DNA of 40,764 nucleotides, taken from assembly GCA_001791115.1 (NCBI GenBank), contig MGDZ01000004.1, forward strand, positions 1 to 40,764. Reading direction: 5' to 3'. The notes under the pieces are model-generated. The model made no database searches and was not told the DNA's origin. It saw only the letters and a list, made by a program, of their open reading frames with translations. Shown one piece after another: positions 2,826-40,547 of this stretch. The first letter of the stretch is position 1. The number at the start of each line of letters is the position of its first letter. The DNA is from Candidatus Uhrbacteria bacterium RIFCSPHIGHO2_02_FULL_57_19 (lineage in GTDB: Bacteria > Patescibacteriota > Patescibacteriia > 2-12-FULL-57-11). The translations under genes and the position numbers were made by a program.

Positions 2826-3215
2826 ATGGAAGCCGCAGCGGAAACAACTAAAAGCGCAGGCCTGCCTGCCGGCAGGCAGGCGCGAAAAAAGAAGGGCGAG
2901 GAGGAAGAGGTCAAAAACCGGATCCGCATTAAGATCCGCGCCCACGACCACCGGATCATTGACCAGTCAACCAAGACCATCATCGAAACCGCTGAGAGAA
3001 GCGGAGCTTCGGTCGTCGGTCCGATTCCGCTGCCCACCGAGAAGCGCAAGTACACGGTCAACCGCTCGACCTTCGTTCACAAGGATTCCCGCGAACAGTA
3101 CGAGATGCGGGTGCACAAGCGGTTGATTGATATCGTTGATCCCACGCCGCGGACCATTGATTCTCTGATGAGTCTAAATCTTCCGGCTGGAGTTGATGTG
3201 GAAATAAAAATGTGA
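2826..3215 (+). CDS. rpsJ: 30S ribosomal protein S10 with a ~27-aa N-terminal extension
   Basis: [17 protein letters not shown]...[21 protein letters not shown] is canonical S10. No ATG/GTG/TTG occurs between ATG-2826 and the conserved core, so the extension, which carries the palindrome, appears to be translated. Confidence 0.88.
2860..2881. repeat. REP-like perfect palindrome CCTGCCTGCCGGCAGGCAGG (copy 1 of 3)
   Basis: Self-complementary 20-mer at 2861-2880, 22 nt with the flanking G/C pair. Related copies at 22131-22151 and 40498-40518. Confidence 0.85.
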
Positions 3216-3515: not shown

Positions 3516-4166
3516 ATGAAGTTCATCTTGGCAAAAAAAATTCAGATGGAGCAACGGTTCCGCCCGAATGGGACGGTGGTTCCGGTTACCCTGCTGGAAG
3601 CCGGACCGTGTACCGTCACCCAGGTGAGAAATGCCGAGCGTGACGGTTATGTCTCGGTCCAGGTAGGGTTTGGCAGCCGCCGGAAGCTCGCCCGACCGCA
3701 GGCCGGGCACGCCAAGGGTTTGCCGTCTCATGCCGAGTTTCGCGAGTTTCGCCTTGATGACGCTTCCAAGTTCGACCGCGGCGGAGTGATCACCGCCGAA
3801 ACTTTCGTCCCCGGCGATCTGGTTACAGTGACCGGAATCTCCAAGGGCCGCGGTTTCGCCGGCGTGGTTAAGCGCCACGGTTTCCACGGCCATCCGCCGA
3901 GCCATGGCCACAAAGATCAGGAGCGCATGCCCGGTTCCATCGGCTCGAAGCGCCAGGGTCCGGTGGCCAAGGGAAAACGCATGGCCGGACGGATGGGCGG
4001 GGAGCGGACAACGGTTAAGAATCTGGAGGTGATCGAAGTCGATCAGGCCAGGAATCTCATCGCCGTCAAAGGGGCGGTTCCCGGCGCGCGAGGAACCTTG
4101 CTGCTTGTCTCCGCCGAAGGGGAGATGGCCGTCGAAGTCGCGCCGACCGCGGCTCCGAACGCCTAA
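3516..4166 (+). CDS. rplC: 50S ribosomal protein L3
   Basis: 216 aa. GKGRGFAGVVKRHGF motif and operon position. Confidence 0.96.
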   Translation: MKFILAKKIQMEQRFRPNGTVVPVTLLEAGPCTVTQVRNAERDGYVSVQVGFGSRRKLARPQAGHAKGLPSHAEFREFRLDDASKFDRGGVITAETFVPGDLVTVTGISKGRGFAGVVKRHGFHGHPPSHGHKDQERMPGSIGSKRQGPVAKGKRMAGRMGGERTTVKNLEVIEVDQARNLIAVKGAVPGARGTLLLVSAEGEMAVEVAPTAAPNA

Positions 4167-4171
4167 AAGTT

Positions 4172-4816
4172 ATGAAAAAGCTTTCCACCATCGTCTATAC
4201 GGAAGAAGGCAAACCAACGGGAGAGATAGATCTGAATCCGGCGGTTTTCGGAGTGGCGGTCAAGCCCCAGGTGTTGCAGCAGGCGATTATCGCCCAGCGG
4301 GCTAATGCCCGCAGGTCGGTGGCCCATACCAAGACTCGCGGCGAGGTCCGCGGCGGAGGCCGAAAGCCCTGGCGCCAGAAGGGGACCGGCCGAGCCAGGC
4401 ATGGCTCCACCCGCTCGCCCATCTGGGTCGGCGGCGGCGTCACTTTCGGGCCGCGCTCGGAACGAAACTTCGAGGTCAAACTCAATCGCAAGACCCGTGT
4501 CGCGGCCATTCGCATGGCTCTTACCGAGAAAGTCGCCGACGGAAAGTTGATAGTTCTGGAATCGTTGGCTTTTCCCGAATATAAAACCAAGCGCATGGCC
4601 GGCATCATGGGAAAACTTCCGACTGTCGGCAGAAAAACTCTGCTGGTGCTTCCGGTCAGTGATGGAAAGGTGTCTAAATCGGCCGCCAACATTCCGGCAG
4701 TAACTACCAGGAACGCGGGGAACCTCAACGTAATCGATCTTGTAAACAACTCCGCTTTGCTGACCACTCGAGAGGGAGTCAAACGGATCGAGGGAATCTA
4801 CGGTCCTAAGAAATAA
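4172..4816 (+). CDS. rplD: 50S ribosomal protein L4
   Basis: 214 aa. GGGRKPWRQKGTGRARHGS.RSPIWVGGG motif. Confidence 0.96.
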   Translation: MKKLSTIVYTEEGKPTGEIDLNPAVFGVAVKPQVLQQAIIAQRANARRSVAHTKTRGEVRGGGRKPWRQKGTGRARHGSTRSPIWVGGGVTFGPRSERNFEVKLNRKTRVAAIRMALTEKVADGKLIVLESLAFPEYKTKRMAGIMGKLPTVGRKTLLVLPVSDGKVSKSAANIPAVTTRNAGNLNVIDLVNNSALLTTREGVKRIEGIYGPKK

Positions 4817-5252: not shown

Positions 5253-6083
5253 ATGCCTGTCAAACATTACAAACCTACCACTCCTGGTCGCCGGCTGGCC
5301 ACCGTCGACGCTTTTGCCGACGTTACCAAGCACAAACCGGAAAAATCGCTCCTGCTTCCTCCCAAGCGCCGCGGCGGCCGGAACTTCCAGGGAAAGATTA
5401 CTGTGCGCCACCGCGGAGGCGGGGCGCGGCGCTACATCCGCATTGTCGATTTCCGGCAGGACCGCTATGATGCGCCGGCCAAAGTGCTGGCCATCGAGTA
5501 CGATCCGGGCCGCGGGGCGAGGATCGCCCTCATCCAATATCAGGATGGAGAGAAGCGCTATATCGTCGCCCCTCTTAATCTTGAGGTGGGCGGAGAGGTG
5601 CGCTCCTCACGGCAGGCTGTCGAGATCAAACCTGGAAACCGCATGCCCTTGGAGTTTATTCCCGTGGGCTTGATCGTCCACAACGTGGAACTTAGGCCCG
5701 GCCAGGGAGGAGTGCTGGTTCGCGGCGCCGGTCTGGGGGCGCAGATCATGGCTGTTGAAGGCGACTACGCCCAGATCAAGCTTCCCTCTGGTGAGATTCG
5801 GATGGTTCCCAAAACCGCGGCCGCCACGGTGGGTATCGTCGGAAATCCGGATCATCGGCTGGTTCGCTACGGAAAAGCCGGCCGCATCAGACATCTGGGC
5901 ATTCGTCCGTCAGTCAGGGGCAAGGCGATGAATCCGGTCGACCATCCGCATGGCGGCGGCGAGGGCAAGCATCCCATCGGCCTGAAGCATCCCAAGACTC
6001 CCTGGGGCAAGCCGGCGCTGGGAGTGAAGACGCGCAAACGGACCAAGTGGTCAAACGTGCTTATTGTCAAACGCCGGAAATAA
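5253..6083 (+). CDS. rplB: 50S ribosomal protein L2
   Basis: 276 aa. [16 protein letters not shown] and [14 protein letters not shown] motifs. Confidence 0.98.
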
Positions 6084-8490: not shown

Positions 8491-8862
8491 ATGGTTCAAC
8501 ACCGCACCATGTTAGTGTCGGCGGACAACACCGGAGCCAGGAAGCTCCAGGTGATTCGGGTTTTGGGCGGATACCAGAAGCGCTACGGCCGATTGGGAGA
8601 CATCATCACCGCGGTGGTCAAGGAGGCCACTCCGCACGGCATGGTCAAGAAGAGCGAAGTGGTGCACGTGGTGATCGTCCGCAGTCACAAAGAGGTCCGT
8701 CGGGCCGACGGGTCCTACATCCGTTTTGACGACAATGCCGGAGTGATTGTCGACCGCAAGAGCAAGGAGCCGAAAGGCACGCGCATTTTTGGGCCGGTGG
8801 CCCGGGAGCTTCGGGCTAAGGGATTTTCGAAGATTATTTCTCTCGCACCGGAAGTGCTGTAA
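8491..8862 (+). CDS. rplN: 50S ribosomal protein L14
   Basis: [27 protein letters not shown]; 123 aa. Confidence 0.97.
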
Positions 8863-20731: not shown

Positions 20732-22183
20732 ATGCAGCGCATCTGGATATCAGAAATAACCGGCAAAGTCGGCCAAGAAGTCGCGCTTTGCGGCTGGGTC
20801 AATGGCCGGCGCGACATGGGGAAGCTCGTCTTCATCGATCTCCGGGATCGCTCGGGCATCGTTCAGGTCGTCTTTCCTTCGGGAAATCAGGAGCTGGCCA
20901 AAGTCGCCGGCGACCTGCGGCCGGAGTTCGTGGTTAGCGTCCGCGGGAAGGTCAACGCGCGACCGCCCAAGCAGGTCAATCCGAATCTGCCCACCGGAAC
21001 GGTGGAAGTTGAGGCGCTGGAGGCCGTGATCCTCAACCAGGCGAAAACGCCGCCTTTTGAAATCGACAAGGACACGGCCGGAGTCAGCGAGGAAACAAGA
21101 CTGGCCTACCGCTATCTTGACCTCCGGAGCGAACGAATGCGGAAGAATCTGGAGCTCCGTCATCGAATGATTAAGTTTTTCCGTGATTGGCTCTCGGAGC
21201 GCGGGTTCCTGGAAATCGAGACGCCGATGCTCACCAAGGGCACGCCGGAGGGCGCGCGGGAGTTCATCGTTCCTTCACGGCTTCATCCCGGAAAATTTTA
21301 CGTCCTGCCTCAATCGCCTCAACAATTCAAACAACTTTTGATGGTCGCCGGAGTGGAGCGCTATTTTCAGATCGCCCGCGCCTTGCGCGACGAGGATCAA
21401 CGGGGAGACCGCCAACCGGAACACACCCAGCTTGACATGGAAATGAGTTTTGTCGATCAGAATGATGTGTTGGAACTTGTTGAGGAAATGATGATGGCCA
21501 TGGTCAAAGCGGTGGCGCCCGAAAAAAAGATTAACGCCATTCCCTTTCCGCGGATTCCTTACGACCAGGCGATGAAAAAATACAAATCAGATAAGCCGGA
21601 TCTGCGAAGGAATCCAGGGGATCCAGATGAGCTGGCCTTTGCCTGGATCGTTGATTTTCCCATGTTCGAGAAGGGAGATGATGGGAAGATCAATGCCATG
21701 CATCATCCTTTCACTTCCGTACACGAAGAGGACCTGCTTGATTCCGACCCGTTGCGTGTCCACGCCAAACAATACGATCTGGTTTTAAATGGCTATGAGC
21801 TGGCCTCGGGGAGCATTCGGATCCATCGGCGGGATTTGCAAAATAAGGTTTTCAAGGTTCTCGGTCTTTCCGACGAAGAAATCGAGCGCCGCTTCGGGCA
21901 TATGCTCCGGGCCTTCGAGTACGGCGCTCCGCCGCACGGAGGCATCGCGCCGGGGATCGACCGCCTGGCCATGCTTCTTGCCGGGGAGCCCAACATCCGC
22001 GAGGTCATCGCTTTTCCCAAGACCGGGGACGCCCGCGACCTTCTAATGGGCGCGCCATCCGAAGTGTCGGCCTCCCAGCTCCGCGAGGTGCACATTCAGA
22101 TCATCAAGGATAAAAAGGGGAACCCTTCGACCTGCCTACCGGACAGGCAGGCTCGGCTCAGGGCAGGGAAAAGAGGAAATTAG
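20732..22183 (+). CDS. aspS: Aspartyl-tRNA synthetase, bacterial-type core but lacking the GAD insertion domain
   Basis: [52 protein letters not shown] is the bacterial-type motif 2 region. [28 protein letters not shown] (nt 21587-21658) joins directly where the GAD domain normally sits. Start chosen at ATG-20732 (MQRIW...). Confidence 0.9.
22131..22151. repeat. REP-like palindrome (copy 2 of 3) inside the aspS C-terminal tail
   Basis: CCTGCCT-ACCGGAC-AGGCAGG encodes ...CLPDRQA... Confidence 0.8.
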
Positions 22184-27083: not shown

Positions 27084-27145
27084 TCCGCGCAACCCGAGGC
27101 ACAAGTATTATCTATCTTCTACCCCAAGTTGCGGGGGCGAGATTT
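27084..27145. repeat. Direct repeat copy A (62 nt, 1 mismatch) of the tRNA-fMet 3' end plus flank
   Basis: Positions 27084-27139 are identical to 27237-27292. After one mismatch, GATTT matches again. The offset is 153 bp. Confidence 0.9.
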
Positions 27146-27236: not shown

Positions 27237-27298
27237 TCCGCGCAACCCGAGGCACAAGTATTATCTATCTTCTACCCCAAGTTGCGGGGGCGGGATTT
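27237..27298. repeat. Direct repeat copy B (overlaps the intact tRNA-fMet 3' end)
   Basis: See copy A. Confidence 0.9.
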
Positions 27299-27355
27299 GA
27301 ACCCGCGACCTCCGGGTTATGGGCCCGGCGAGCTGCCAGACTGCTCTACCCCGCT
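27282..27355 (-). tRNA. Initiator-type tRNA-Met (anticodon CAT), CCA not encoded
   Basis: AGCGGGG-T-A-GAGC-AGTCTGGCA-GCTC-G-CCGGG-CCCATAA-CCCGG-AGGTC-GCGGG-TTCAAAT-CCCGC-CCCCGCA-A. Three G-C pairs close the anticodon stem. Position 1-72 is an A x A mismatch. Confidence 0.85.
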
Positions 27356-27372
27356 ATATCAATCCTCGAATA

Positions 27373-27451
27373 TGCCGCCGGTCGGGGTCGAACCGACACG
27401 GGGTTGCCCCCATCCCGCCAAAGGCGGGACGTGCCCGCCTGCCAACGCCTA
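27373..27451 (-). pseudogene. 3' portion of a class-II tRNA (degenerate D/anticodon region, variable arm, T arm, acceptor 3' strand); no local 5' acceptor strand
   Basis: The minus strand ends ...TCCCG-CCTTTGG-CGGGA-T-GGGG-GCAA-CCCC-GT-GTCGG-TTCGACC-CCGAC-CGGCGGC-A. It starts immediately after the tRNA-Leu discriminator base. Confidence 0.6.
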
Positions 27452-27534
27452 TGCCGGAGGAGGGGATCGAACCCTCATGCCTTATGGGCACACGATTTTG
27501 AGTCGTGCGCGTCTGCCAATTCCGCCACTCCGGC
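27452..27534 (-). tRNA. tRNA-Leu (anticodon CAA), class II, CCA not encoded
   Basis: GCCGGAG-TG-GCGG-AATTGGCAGA-CGC-G-CACGA-CTCAAAA-TCGTG-TGCCCATAAGGCAT-GAGGG-TTCGATC-CCCTC-CTCCGGC-A. Confidence 0.92.
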
Positions 27535-27576
27535 GTAGGCATAGGCGGGCAGGTCTGCTAATTCCACCACGGCGGC
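27535..27576 (-). pseudogene. 5' half of a class-II tRNA whose acceptor strand matches the 3' piece at 27373-27451
   Basis: GCCGCCG-TG-GTGG-AATTAGCAGA-CCTGCCCGCCTATGCCTAC. GCCGCCG is the exact complement of CGGCGGC at 27374-27380. The D arm is nearly identical to that of tRNA-Leu. Confidence 0.6.
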
Positions 27577-27650
27577 GTGCGGGAATAGGATACTCGGCTC
27601 GCTGGTTATTGTCAAACCAGTTCATCTGAGTTATTATCCCGTCGTTGTGA

Positions 27651-27724
27651 GGCGGGGTAGCTCAGTTGGTTAGAGCGAGGGACTCATAAGCCCTAGGTCG
27701 CCGGTTCGATCCCGGCCCCCGCTA
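27651..27724 (+). tRNA. tRNA with anticodon CAT (elongator Met or lysidine-dependent Ile2), CCA not encoded
   Basis: GGCGGGG-T-A-GCTC-AGTTGGTTA-GAGC-G-AGGGA-CTCATAA-GCCCT-AGGTC-GCCGG-TTCGATC-CCGGC-CCCCGCT-A. Confidence 0.88.
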
Positions 27725-27735
27725 TTTGAGAATAC
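27708..27735. repeat. 28-nt direct repeat R1 (T-loop to 3' end of tRNA-CAT plus 11 nt of flank)
   Basis: GATCCCGGCCCCCGCTATTTGAGAATAC, identical to 27846-27873. Confidence 0.92.
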
Positions 27736-27740
27736 ACAAG

Positions 27741-27862
27741 TAGCGGGACGGGATCGAACAGGGAAGGGTCGGAAACCGTGAGGTTTCCGTGGAGGAAGTA
27801 TTGAAACCGAGTGGTTTCAAAAGCCCCGCCCTGCGGGGCGTGTGAGATCCCGGCCCCCGCTA
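27741..27862 (+). ncRNA. Candidate structured RNA: a 13-bp interrupted closing helix plus three perfect hairpins (cloverleaf topology)
   Basis: TAGCGGG/CCCGCTA and GGGATC/GATCCC close the structure. The hairpins are CGGAAACC-GTGA-GGTTTCCG (27770-27789), TTGAAACC-GAGT-GGTTTCAA (27801-27820) and GCCCCGC-CCT-GCGGGGC (27823-27839). Its 3' strand is repeat R2. Confidence 0.35.
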
Positions 27863-27873
27863 TTTGAGAATAC
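27846..27873. repeat. 28-nt direct repeat R2
   Basis: Identical to 27708-27735; offset 138 bp. Confidence 0.92.
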
Positions 27874-40450: not shown

Positions 40451-40547
40451 ATTATGAGACTGTAGAAAAACTCCATTTCTGCTGCGATCACGCTGTTCCT
40501 GCCTGCCGGCAGACAGGCGAAAGCGAGTTCTTCTACAGTCTCATTAT
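40451..40547. repeat. 17-bp inverted repeats (1 mismatch) bracketing REP-like palindrome copy 3
   Basis: ATTATGAGACTGTAGAA (40451-40467) pairs with TTCTACAGTCTCATTAT (40531-40547). CCTGCCTGCCGGCAGACAGGC lies inside, at 40498-40518. Confidence 0.85.

Follow-up and report, generated by a model that had tools for sequence, protein, structure and literature searches.

A contig of Candidatus Uhrbacteria bacterium RIFCSPHIGHO2_02_FULL_57_19, a member of the Candidate Phyla Radiation (CPR), carries on its minus strand, from position 27576 to position 27373, the two halves of a class-II tRNA enclosing a complete tRNA-Leu(CAA) gene. The stretch analyzed (contig MGDZ01000004.1, positions 1 to 40,764, hereafter the window) brought 40.8 kb of the genome into view. 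The outer gene is probably a decaying tRNA-Leu(CAA) that was interrupted by a palindrome-armed insertion carrying its own replacement, and the recurrence of this layout in many of these ultra-small bacteria points to an overwriting of tRNA genes, apparently undescribed, rather than to a working split tRNA.

The nested tRNA-Leu locus

The enclosed gene was called by both ARAGORN and Rfam, and its minimum-free-energy fold was a clean cloverleaf. Together with inspection of the sequence, these results upheld the description given in the initial annotation of the window, namely that of a class-II tRNA split around a complete tRNA-Leu(CAA). The outer 3' piece (27433-27373) includes a variable-arm hairpin GGGG-GCAA-CCCC and a T arm GTCGG-TTCGACC-CCGAC followed by CGGCGGC-A, and the two outer acceptor strands are complementary at 7 of 7 positions. 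The insertion, approximately 120 nt in length, lies at the junction of the D loop and D stem of the outer gene. Its flanks (27553-27535 and 27451-27434) pair with each other, as had been proposed, although not in the 9 + 5 bp first suggested; the helix comprises 7 bp (AUGCCUA/UAGGCGU, with one G-U pair) and 9 bp (UGCCCGCCU/AGGCGGGCA) and has a 4-nt bulge on its 3' side. This stalk begins right behind the inner discriminator base, leaving no spare nucleotide at the 3' side of the inner gene, as had also been noted, and its 9-bp segment has two bases in common with the CAC strand of the outer D stem. The 204-nt sequence folded with a z-score of -5.5, a value equaled by none of 200 shuffles, into a structure closed in its entirety by the outer acceptor stem. 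For the leader/trailer duplex alone, z-scores were approximately -4.6 to -5.0 in the window and approximately 0 for ordinary tRNA genes.

It is barely conceivable that the assembly produced the nested order by fusing the tRNA-Leu alleles of two strains into a chimera. The source is a metagenome-assembled genome, and a related contig (L001; sequences from other assemblies are designated by L numbers) breaks right beside the locus. However, all 204 nt were found at 100% identity in a Joint Genome Institute (JGI) contig from an independent metagenome (L002), in which the adjacent spacers differ by indels, and the nested order is thus not an assembly artefact. Dozens of assemblies produced by different projects show the same architecture as well, among them a single-cell genome (L007) and a polished contig (L009).

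In its native sequence the outer gene was called neither by ARAGORN nor by Rfam (E values up to 10), both of which reported the inner gene only. When all 204 nt were submitted to ARAGORN in intron mode and at relaxed thresholds, the inner gene was again the only one called. The outer halves and the stalk matched no known RNA family in Rfam at gathering thresholds or at E values up to 10, the only matches at high E being chance-level ones to miRNA, Y-RNA and tRNA-Sec. When the outer halves were joined in silico, ARAGORN at default thresholds returned a cloverleaf for the resulting 84-mer, in agreement with the cloverleaf drawn earlier, and labeled it "tRNA-Lys(ttt)"; at relaxed thresholds the program calls nearly any artificial join, and that test is not discriminating. 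The label reflects a loop that had been recognized as aberrant and is so: read as 7 nt it is CCUUUGG, with C33 rather than U33 and UUU as the anticodon. The predicted fold of this arm is a 9-bp hairpin with a UUU loop, and the 17-nt GC arm of which it consists was absent from every tRNA-Leu in the fetched set. Furthermore, the outer D loop (GAATTAGCAGA) has A in place of G18, so that G18G19 is missing; intact relatives have GAATTGGCAGA, and intact tRNA-Leu(CAA) genes begin GCCGCCGTGG(C/T)GGAATTGGCAGA.

The remainder of the outer gene is that of an ordinary tRNA-Leu, with a 7-bp acceptor stem, A73, a TTCGA T loop and a long variable arm. A metagenome scan with its last 24 nt recovered 28 loci, nearly all of them intact tRNA-Leu(CAA) genes; the 24 nt were identical in 26 intact tRNA-Leu genes (24 CAA and 2 TAA), and the scanned genes share both the acceptor GCCGCCG/CGGCGGC and the T arm with the outer gene. 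Identity of the outer ends (first 23 plus last 40 nt) to intact tRNA-Leu genes was 87-90%, as opposed to 64% overall between the outer and inner genes of the same locus. Defects were limited to the A at position 18 and the anticodon arm, which has been swapped for a GC palindrome of the same length, and restoration in silico of G18 and a CTCAAAA loop led to a call of tRNA-Leu(caa). By these sequence comparisons, the outer gene is a former tRNA-Leu(CAA). The perfect acceptor pairing had been taken as a sign of a recent event or of selection, and this interpretation needs qualification: a widespread intact tRNA-Leu(CAA) allele has this same acceptor and T arm, and the pairing is therefore inherited from a once-functional gene.

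Among the three interpretations offered at the outset, a tRNA paralog destroyed by insertion is the best supported. An intron-like insertion describes the anatomy well enough (the site at the D-loop/D-stem junction, the pairing of the ends), but nothing indicates splicing. The third, in which the halves reassemble, holds only as far as folding is concerned. In that case, removal of the inner tRNA by RNase P and RNase Z would leave outer halves annealed through the acceptor stem and the stalk, and these would either serve as a tRNA in two pieces, as in Nanoarchaeum, or be ligated to give an expanded one. The outer pieces do cofold, at -76.5 kcal/mol as compared with -10.0 and -40.3 kcal/mol singly (-50.3 kcal/mol apart); all outer stems of the window are intact, the joined 84-mer is accepted by ARAGORN, the outer genes of three other loci (L018, L029 and L034) would be normal tRNA-Leu genes with the insertion taken out, and a tRNA-Met with three hairpin insertions in a relative (L004) retains exons identical to those of an intact copy. 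A functional outer tRNA is nevertheless very unlikely at this locus. It would have no G18G19, C33 before the anticodon, and an anticodon arm that prefers to form the 9-bp hairpin; a Leu-type body with anticodon UUU is not a credible decoder, and insertion of leucine at lysine codons by such a mischarged tRNA would be harmful. No bulge-helix-bulge motif was found at the junctions of outer gene and insertion, and to our knowledge no bacterial enzyme set would rejoin tRNA halves of this kind. Outer genes decay in relatives, and since each outer gene encloses an intact one with the same anticodon, nothing requires the outer one to work.

The arms of the insertion, CCTGCCCGCC and GGCAGGCGGG, are the two halves of one palindrome and bound the insert as terminal inverted repeats. 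With up to 1 mismatch allowed, CCTGCCYGCC had 19 matches in the window, more than the 9.0 +/- 2.9 expected (0 of 100 shuffles reached 19). The palindrome occupies four sites in the 40.8 kb, and at the three others it is empty, with CCTGCCTGCC and GGCAGGCAGG or near variants standing back to back (Table 1). Thus the tRNA gene at this locus occupies the loop of one member of a dispersed family of palindromic repeats. The same arms are present at L027, L031, L034, L038 and L041, and the exact palindromic 20-mer was found in 42 copies in contigs of IMG/VR, some of them within tRNA genes. One such copy lies in a truncated tRNA remnant (L122, about 485-560) at D-loop position 21/22, which is also the insertion site in the window; another occupies the variable loop of a tRNA-Met (L115, 2239-2330), a gene nonetheless called by ARAGORN, as a 92-nt tRNA; and a third lies inside a truncated tRNA remnant on a viral contig (L092, about 8560-8670). 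Cargo between the arms in viral contigs consisted of other hairpins and palindromes, with no tRNA among it. Some IMG/VR copies are flanked by direct repeats of 7-8 nt (L093, L109), often within repeat-rich sequence. A 17-nt direct duplication had been reported at the junctions of the nested locus; the two copies were identical at only 11 of 17 positions and consist mostly of the recurring CCCGCC/GGCGGG motif, which explains them, and they were rejected as a target-site duplication.

Under the favored explanation, the locus would be one transcription unit in which a resident tRNA-Leu(CAA) was interrupted at its D-loop/D-stem junction by an insertion of approximately 120 nt, the ends of which are palindromic repeat arms and the interior of which is a different, complete tRNA-Leu(CAA) allele on a 16-bp leader/trailer stalk. 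Given the promoter-like site upstream of the outer gene, which ends 11 nt before its base G1, the outer 5' half would be transcribed as leader of the inner tRNA, and the inner gene would provide the tRNA from the old outer promoter. A single precursor would span the outer 5' piece, the inner tRNA between its two stalk strands and the outer 3' piece and would extend into the neighboring tRNA-Met, with which the nested tRNA-Leu probably shares one transcript. RNase P and RNase Z, perhaps after a cut by RNase III in the stalk, would then free the inner tRNA and the initiator tRNA-Met, and the outer halves, transcribed solely as leader and trailer, would be by-products. The outer gene would be a relic that has since lost G18 and had its anticodon arm replaced by a GC palindrome.

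Recurrence and swapped allele roles in other genomes

Species genomes of GTDB were searched by exact matching with a generic pattern consisting of a class-II D arm and, within 10-40 nt, a tRNA-Leu D arm, which returned 58 loci. Curation eliminated cyanobacterial simple repeats, one N-gap and, from Firmicutes and Proteobacteria, duplicates that were simply truncated, and the counts that follow are those of the authors' own curation of the printed sequences. Approximately 17 loci were fully nested, with an outer 5' part, stalk, complete inner tRNA-Leu, stalk and outer 3' part, and approximately 12 more were partial, keeping the outer 5' fragment and the stalk. Nested loci were found mainly in Saccharimonadales, Peregrinibacteria/Peribacteria, Paceibacter and unclassified Patescibacteria, most of them CPR; those from elsewhere belonged to Elusimicrobiales (L034) and Balneolaceae (L009), and the metagenome scan yielded another (L089). 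The Balneolaceae locus (about 4130-4560) is a nested tRNA-Leu(TAA) whose outer halves bear GC hairpin insertions of their own, and the architecture is therefore not confined to CPR. In all 15 cases in which the outer anticodon was readable it was the same as the inner one (CAA, CAG or TAG). One locus (L021, about 1090-1400) has three layers, X in Y in X, of which the outermost consists of remnants of a tRNA-Leu(CAA) and the innermost is complete; the 3' end of the outermost layer matches the innermost allele.

Pairing of leader and trailer was a defining property of these loci. For 29 nested or partial genes the median duplex z-score was -3.17, with 15 of 29 at or below -3, as compared with a median of 0.1 and 1 of 90 at or below -3 for the 90 other tRNA genes in the fetched DNA (Mann-Whitney p = 6e-9). 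The sequence of the stalk varies by lineage, being AT-rich in Saccharimonadales and of the GC-rich CCTGCC/CCCGCC type elsewhere, and complementarity is kept throughout. A 12-mer search for the stalk sequence of each locus elsewhere in the same locus was uninformative. Such pairing could reflect a role in RNA, as a processing stalk or as insulation from the homologous outer halves; a DNA element that is itself a hairpin would account for it just as well.

If the former, outer halves and stalk may be retained as a scaffold for RNA processing, comparable to the processing stalks of rRNA or to the intervening sequences that RNase III excises from 23S rRNA, which would offer entry sites to RNase P, RNase Z and RNase III and would prevent incorrect pairing between the inner tRNA and the homologous halves. 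Retention of complementarity among stalks that differ widely in sequence agrees with this proposal, as does the persistence of the stalk at five loci (L025, L028, L043, L053 and L061) in which the outer 3' half is no longer recognizable. In the window, moreover, the acceptor stem and T arm, which constitute a minimal substrate for RNase P and RNase Z, are the best-preserved parts of the outer gene, and a tRNA-Met follows the outer gene at a distance of just 17 nt. On the other hand, ordinary tRNA genes of the same loci do without such stalks, many outer genes lack acceptor pairing, and complementary ends are also expected of a hairpin or palindromic DNA element, so that pairing is no proof of a role in RNA. 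A scaffold is considered a rather unlikely reason for the nested arrangement.

The condition of the outer gene in relatives ranged from intact to badly decayed. As noted above, three outer genes are normal once the insertion is removed; in others the T stem is broken (L057), the acceptor strands are mispaired or lost (L006, L018, L042), or further hairpins have been inserted in the D, anticodon or variable arm or the T loop (L005, L024, L027, L031, L032 and L006/L042/L057). Inner and outer alleles exchange roles between genomes. Thus, the inner allele of the window, of the GCCGGAG type, resembles the outer gene of L029 (89% over the ends) and that of L018, the outer allele of the window is the inner gene of L089, and the outer gene of L017 is the inner gene of L061. 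That many CPR genomes share this layout suggests that tRNA genes are repeatedly overwritten by cassettes nested inside them; where a genome holds one copy per tRNA, only cassettes of the same isoacceptor would leave a viable cell.

Cassettes need not have moved between genomes if the nesting were produced by local rearrangement alone, that is, by tandem duplication followed by deletions, hairpin insertions and gene conversion. Inner and outer genes are nearly identical in L006, L017, L032 and L057, tandem tRNA-Met copies with and without insertions occur in L004, and both tRNA-Met genes of the window are trailed by duplicated 3' fragments. Copying in situ or gene conversion thus also occurs, but as the sole process it seems doubtful. 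The inner and outer genes of the window are only 64% identical and each matches alleles of other taxa, alleles swap roles between genomes and alternate in the three layers of L021, and derivation of a nested gene from a triplication needs two precisely placed deletions, repeated in many lineages.

Several findings weigh against the overwriting of a resident tRNA by a mobile cassette. All stems of the outer gene of the window are still perfectly paired, which would not be expected of an old pseudogene, and the near-identity of inner and outer genes in the four loci just mentioned fits in-situ duplication or gene conversion equally well. The insertion at the tRNA-Leu site is flanked by no target-site duplication. 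The 144 open reading frames (ORFs) neighboring 30 nested or partial loci included no transposase, integrase or homing endonuclease that recurred, and the neighbor families that did recur, sortase and Exo_endo_phos, reflect synteny in Saccharimonadales. Positions of insertion differ by lineage (21/22-23, 25/26, 26/27 and 33/34), and the search pattern, in which the anticodon was unconstrained, requires conserved D arms and detects nesting of tRNA-Leu within tRNA-Leu only. Whether or not they contain a tRNA, most insertions are located within cloverleaf loops or at loop edges, a placement that could suit a mechanism acting on the tips of hairpins or could be an effect of survivorship.

Genomic setting and feature coordinates

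The genes surrounding the locus are bacterial housekeeping genes, including those for ScpA/B, ParA/B, a D-Ala-D-Ala carboxypeptidase and aminoacyl-tRNA synthetases, and the product of a nearby metallophosphoesterase gene has a match of 100% identity in Candidatus Uhrbacteria bacterium RIFCSPHIGHO2_12_FULL_57_11. A search for an orthologous locus through synteny with this metallophosphoesterase found none; the 2.7-kb contig that carries a 70%-identical relative (L003) is devoid of tRNA genes, and the ORF upstream in that contig is unrelated to its counterpart in the window. The nested tRNA-Leu belongs to a small cluster of tRNA genes in which it is followed on the minus strand by an initiator-type tRNA-Met, with a second tRNA-Met in divergent orientation on the plus strand. 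Coordinates are collected in Table 1.

Table 1. Features of the nested tRNA-Leu locus, the adjacent tRNA-Met and the empty palindromes of the window.
Feature	Position	Strand	Evidence or remark
Sigma-70-like promoter, TTGACA-17-TATCCT	27587..27615	-	10/12 consensus matches; consensus match only
Outer 5' piece: acceptor GCCGCCG, U8 G9, D-stem GTG, D loop GAATTAGCAGA	27554..27576	-	Sequence
Left arm of insertion, CCTGCCCGCC	27544..27553	-	Half of the palindrome family CCTGCCTGCC GGCAGGCAGG
Inner part of stalk, 5' side, TATGCCTAC	27535..27543	-	Pairs with 27451-27445
Complete inner tRNA-Leu(CAA), 83 nt, CCA not encoded	27452..27534	-	ARAGORN; Rfam tRNA, 56.6 bits
Inner part of stalk, 3' side, TAGGCGTT	27444..27451	-	Directly after inner discriminator base
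Right arm of insertion, GGCAGGCGGG	27434..27443	-	Inverted-repeat search (I9)
3' strand of outer D stem, CAC, and G26	27430..27433	-	Sequence; ARAGORN cloverleaf of joined sequence
17-nt GC hairpin TCCCGCC-TTT-GGCGGGA (TCCCGCCTTTGGCGGGA), replacing outer anticodon arm	27413..27429	-	Sequence; fold
Outer variable arm, T arm, acceptor 3' strand CGGCGGC, discriminator A	27373..27412	-	Sequence
Initiator-type tRNA-Met	27281..27355	-	ARAGORN, Rfam; 17 nt 3' of outer end
Empty palindrome, CCTGCCTGCCGGCAGGCAGG	2861..2880	.	N-terminal extension of S10 ORF; encodes GLPAGRQA
Degenerate empty palindrome, CCTGCCTACCGGACAGGCAGG	22131..22151	.	C-terminal tail of AspRS-like ORF
Empty palindrome, CCTGCCTGCCGGCAGACAGG	40498..40517	.	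Spacer beside tRNA-Val

The minus-strand tRNA-Met carries three G-C pairs in the anticodon stem, and its bases 1 and 72 are mismatched as A1/A72, where C1/A72 is usual in bacteria. Its final 18 nt fall within a 62-nt direct repeat (27084-27145 and 27237-27298; 98% identical, 153 nt apart), one additional unit of which, 88% identical, is present in the related contigs L001 and L002; the copy number thus differs among strains. Its spacer to the outer 3' end, 17 nt in the window (27356-27372), is approximately 90 nt in the near-identical L002 (about 3551-3640), the additional sequence containing many short palindromes. The 3' end of the plus-strand tRNA-Met, from T loop to end, together with a 12-nt trailer, is repeated over 46 nt (27690-27735 and 27828-27873) in what looks like an att-type or duplication scar.

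In the Uhrbacteria relative that contains L004 (52% identical), three copies of an initiator tRNA-Met are arranged in tandem (5564-6047). The middle copy is intact. The third, whose exons are identical to those of the intact copy, has three hairpin insertions with ends TCCCGA...TCGGGA, at the D stem, at D-loop position 21/22 and in the variable loop, and the first is truncated and has one insertion in common with the third.

Comparison with known systems

Bacterial tRNA genes are seen as simple, uninterrupted and highly stable, and at this locus an essential single-copy tRNA gene has apparently been overwritten by a nested copy, as appears to have occurred repeatedly across a large bacterial radiation. 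Nested or interrupted tRNAs of CPR bacteria were not described in the literature searched (on nested and interrupted tRNAs, tRNA introns of CPR bacteria and the palindrome), in which only insertions in CPR rRNA were found. It is tentatively proposed that nested tRNA cassettes, in CPR bacteria and in some others, make up a separate and so far undescribed class of selfish or gene-converting elements. Stalk and complete tRNA would form a hairpin-shaped unit that enters the resident gene of the same isoacceptor at a loop position and captures the promoter of that gene, and loci of the Russian-doll type would result from repeated rounds. In a stronger version, related small hairpin insertions in D, variable and T loops would be tolerated or removed at the level of RNA, and some bacterial tRNAs would be expanded, fragmented or spliced. 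If the overwriting process is real, it would represent a new mode of tRNA gene turnover and of horizontal allele replacement and would account for tRNA fragments that annotation pipelines ignore; CPR tRNA inventories may then hide relics and interrupted genes. Long-stalk and hairpin-inserted tRNAs would also be natural substrates for studying the specificity of RNase P, RNase Z and RNase III under a reduced RNA-processing machinery.

Among Archaea, the split tRNAs of Nanoarchaeum, the tri-split tRNAs of Caldivirga and the transposing introns of Thermoproteales are the closest parallels (PMC4090602, PMC3218864, PMC10714607). The present locus resembles them in that a tRNA gene is interrupted at a non-canonical position, GC-rich complementary sequences could hold the halves together, and intron-like elements have spread among tRNA genes. 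In contrast with these systems, it is found in a bacterium, both halves would lie in one transcript, the insert carries a full tRNA, and the outer gene has no usable anticodon loop. Inspection of the sequence and fold revealed no bulge-helix-bulge (two 3-nt bulges, 4 bp apart) at the junctions, up to which the ends of the insertion pair with each other. Assignment to the Nanoarchaeum type, with halves at separate loci that have a promoter each, was rejected as both halves are contained in 204 nt behind one promoter-like site, and a group I intron, expected in the anticodon loop and with a conserved ribozyme core, was ruled out by the D-loop/D-stem site, the 120-nt length and the lack of an Rfam intron match.

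The 23S rRNA intervening sequences of bacteria are excised by RNase III without religation. Like the present insertion, they are hairpins in the loop of a structural RNA, with a stem formed by their own ends and a patchy distribution; they differ in that the host RNA here is a tRNA that looks inactive and the insert encodes a tRNA.

Integrative elements that use attB sites in tRNA genes carry a replacement segment that restores the targeted tRNA. Here too, the insert would restore the function of a disrupted tRNA, and fragments of tRNA remain as repeats, as seen at the 3' ends of the tRNA-Met genes of the window. Unlike these elements, however, the insertion of approximately 120 nt brings in a whole tRNA, and it is nested instead of forming a direct repeat that flanks an island. 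With this nesting and no integrase nearby, insertion of the integrase type was rejected for the Leu locus, although the tRNA-Met genes do have 3'-fragment repeats.

Rickettsia palindromic elements are selfish sequences that invade genes, and one of them sits in the tmRNA gene (PMC1458961). As with these and with REP- and MITE-like elements, the family described here is a short palindrome with dispersed copies and inverted ends that occurs within protein genes (the N-terminus of S10 and the C-terminus of AspRS) as well as in genes for structural RNAs. It departs from them in that the core measures only 20 bp, in that no mobilizing enzyme was found among the 144 ORFs near the 30 loci, and in that the loop of the palindrome holds a complete tRNA gene, placed inside a gene for the same tRNA.

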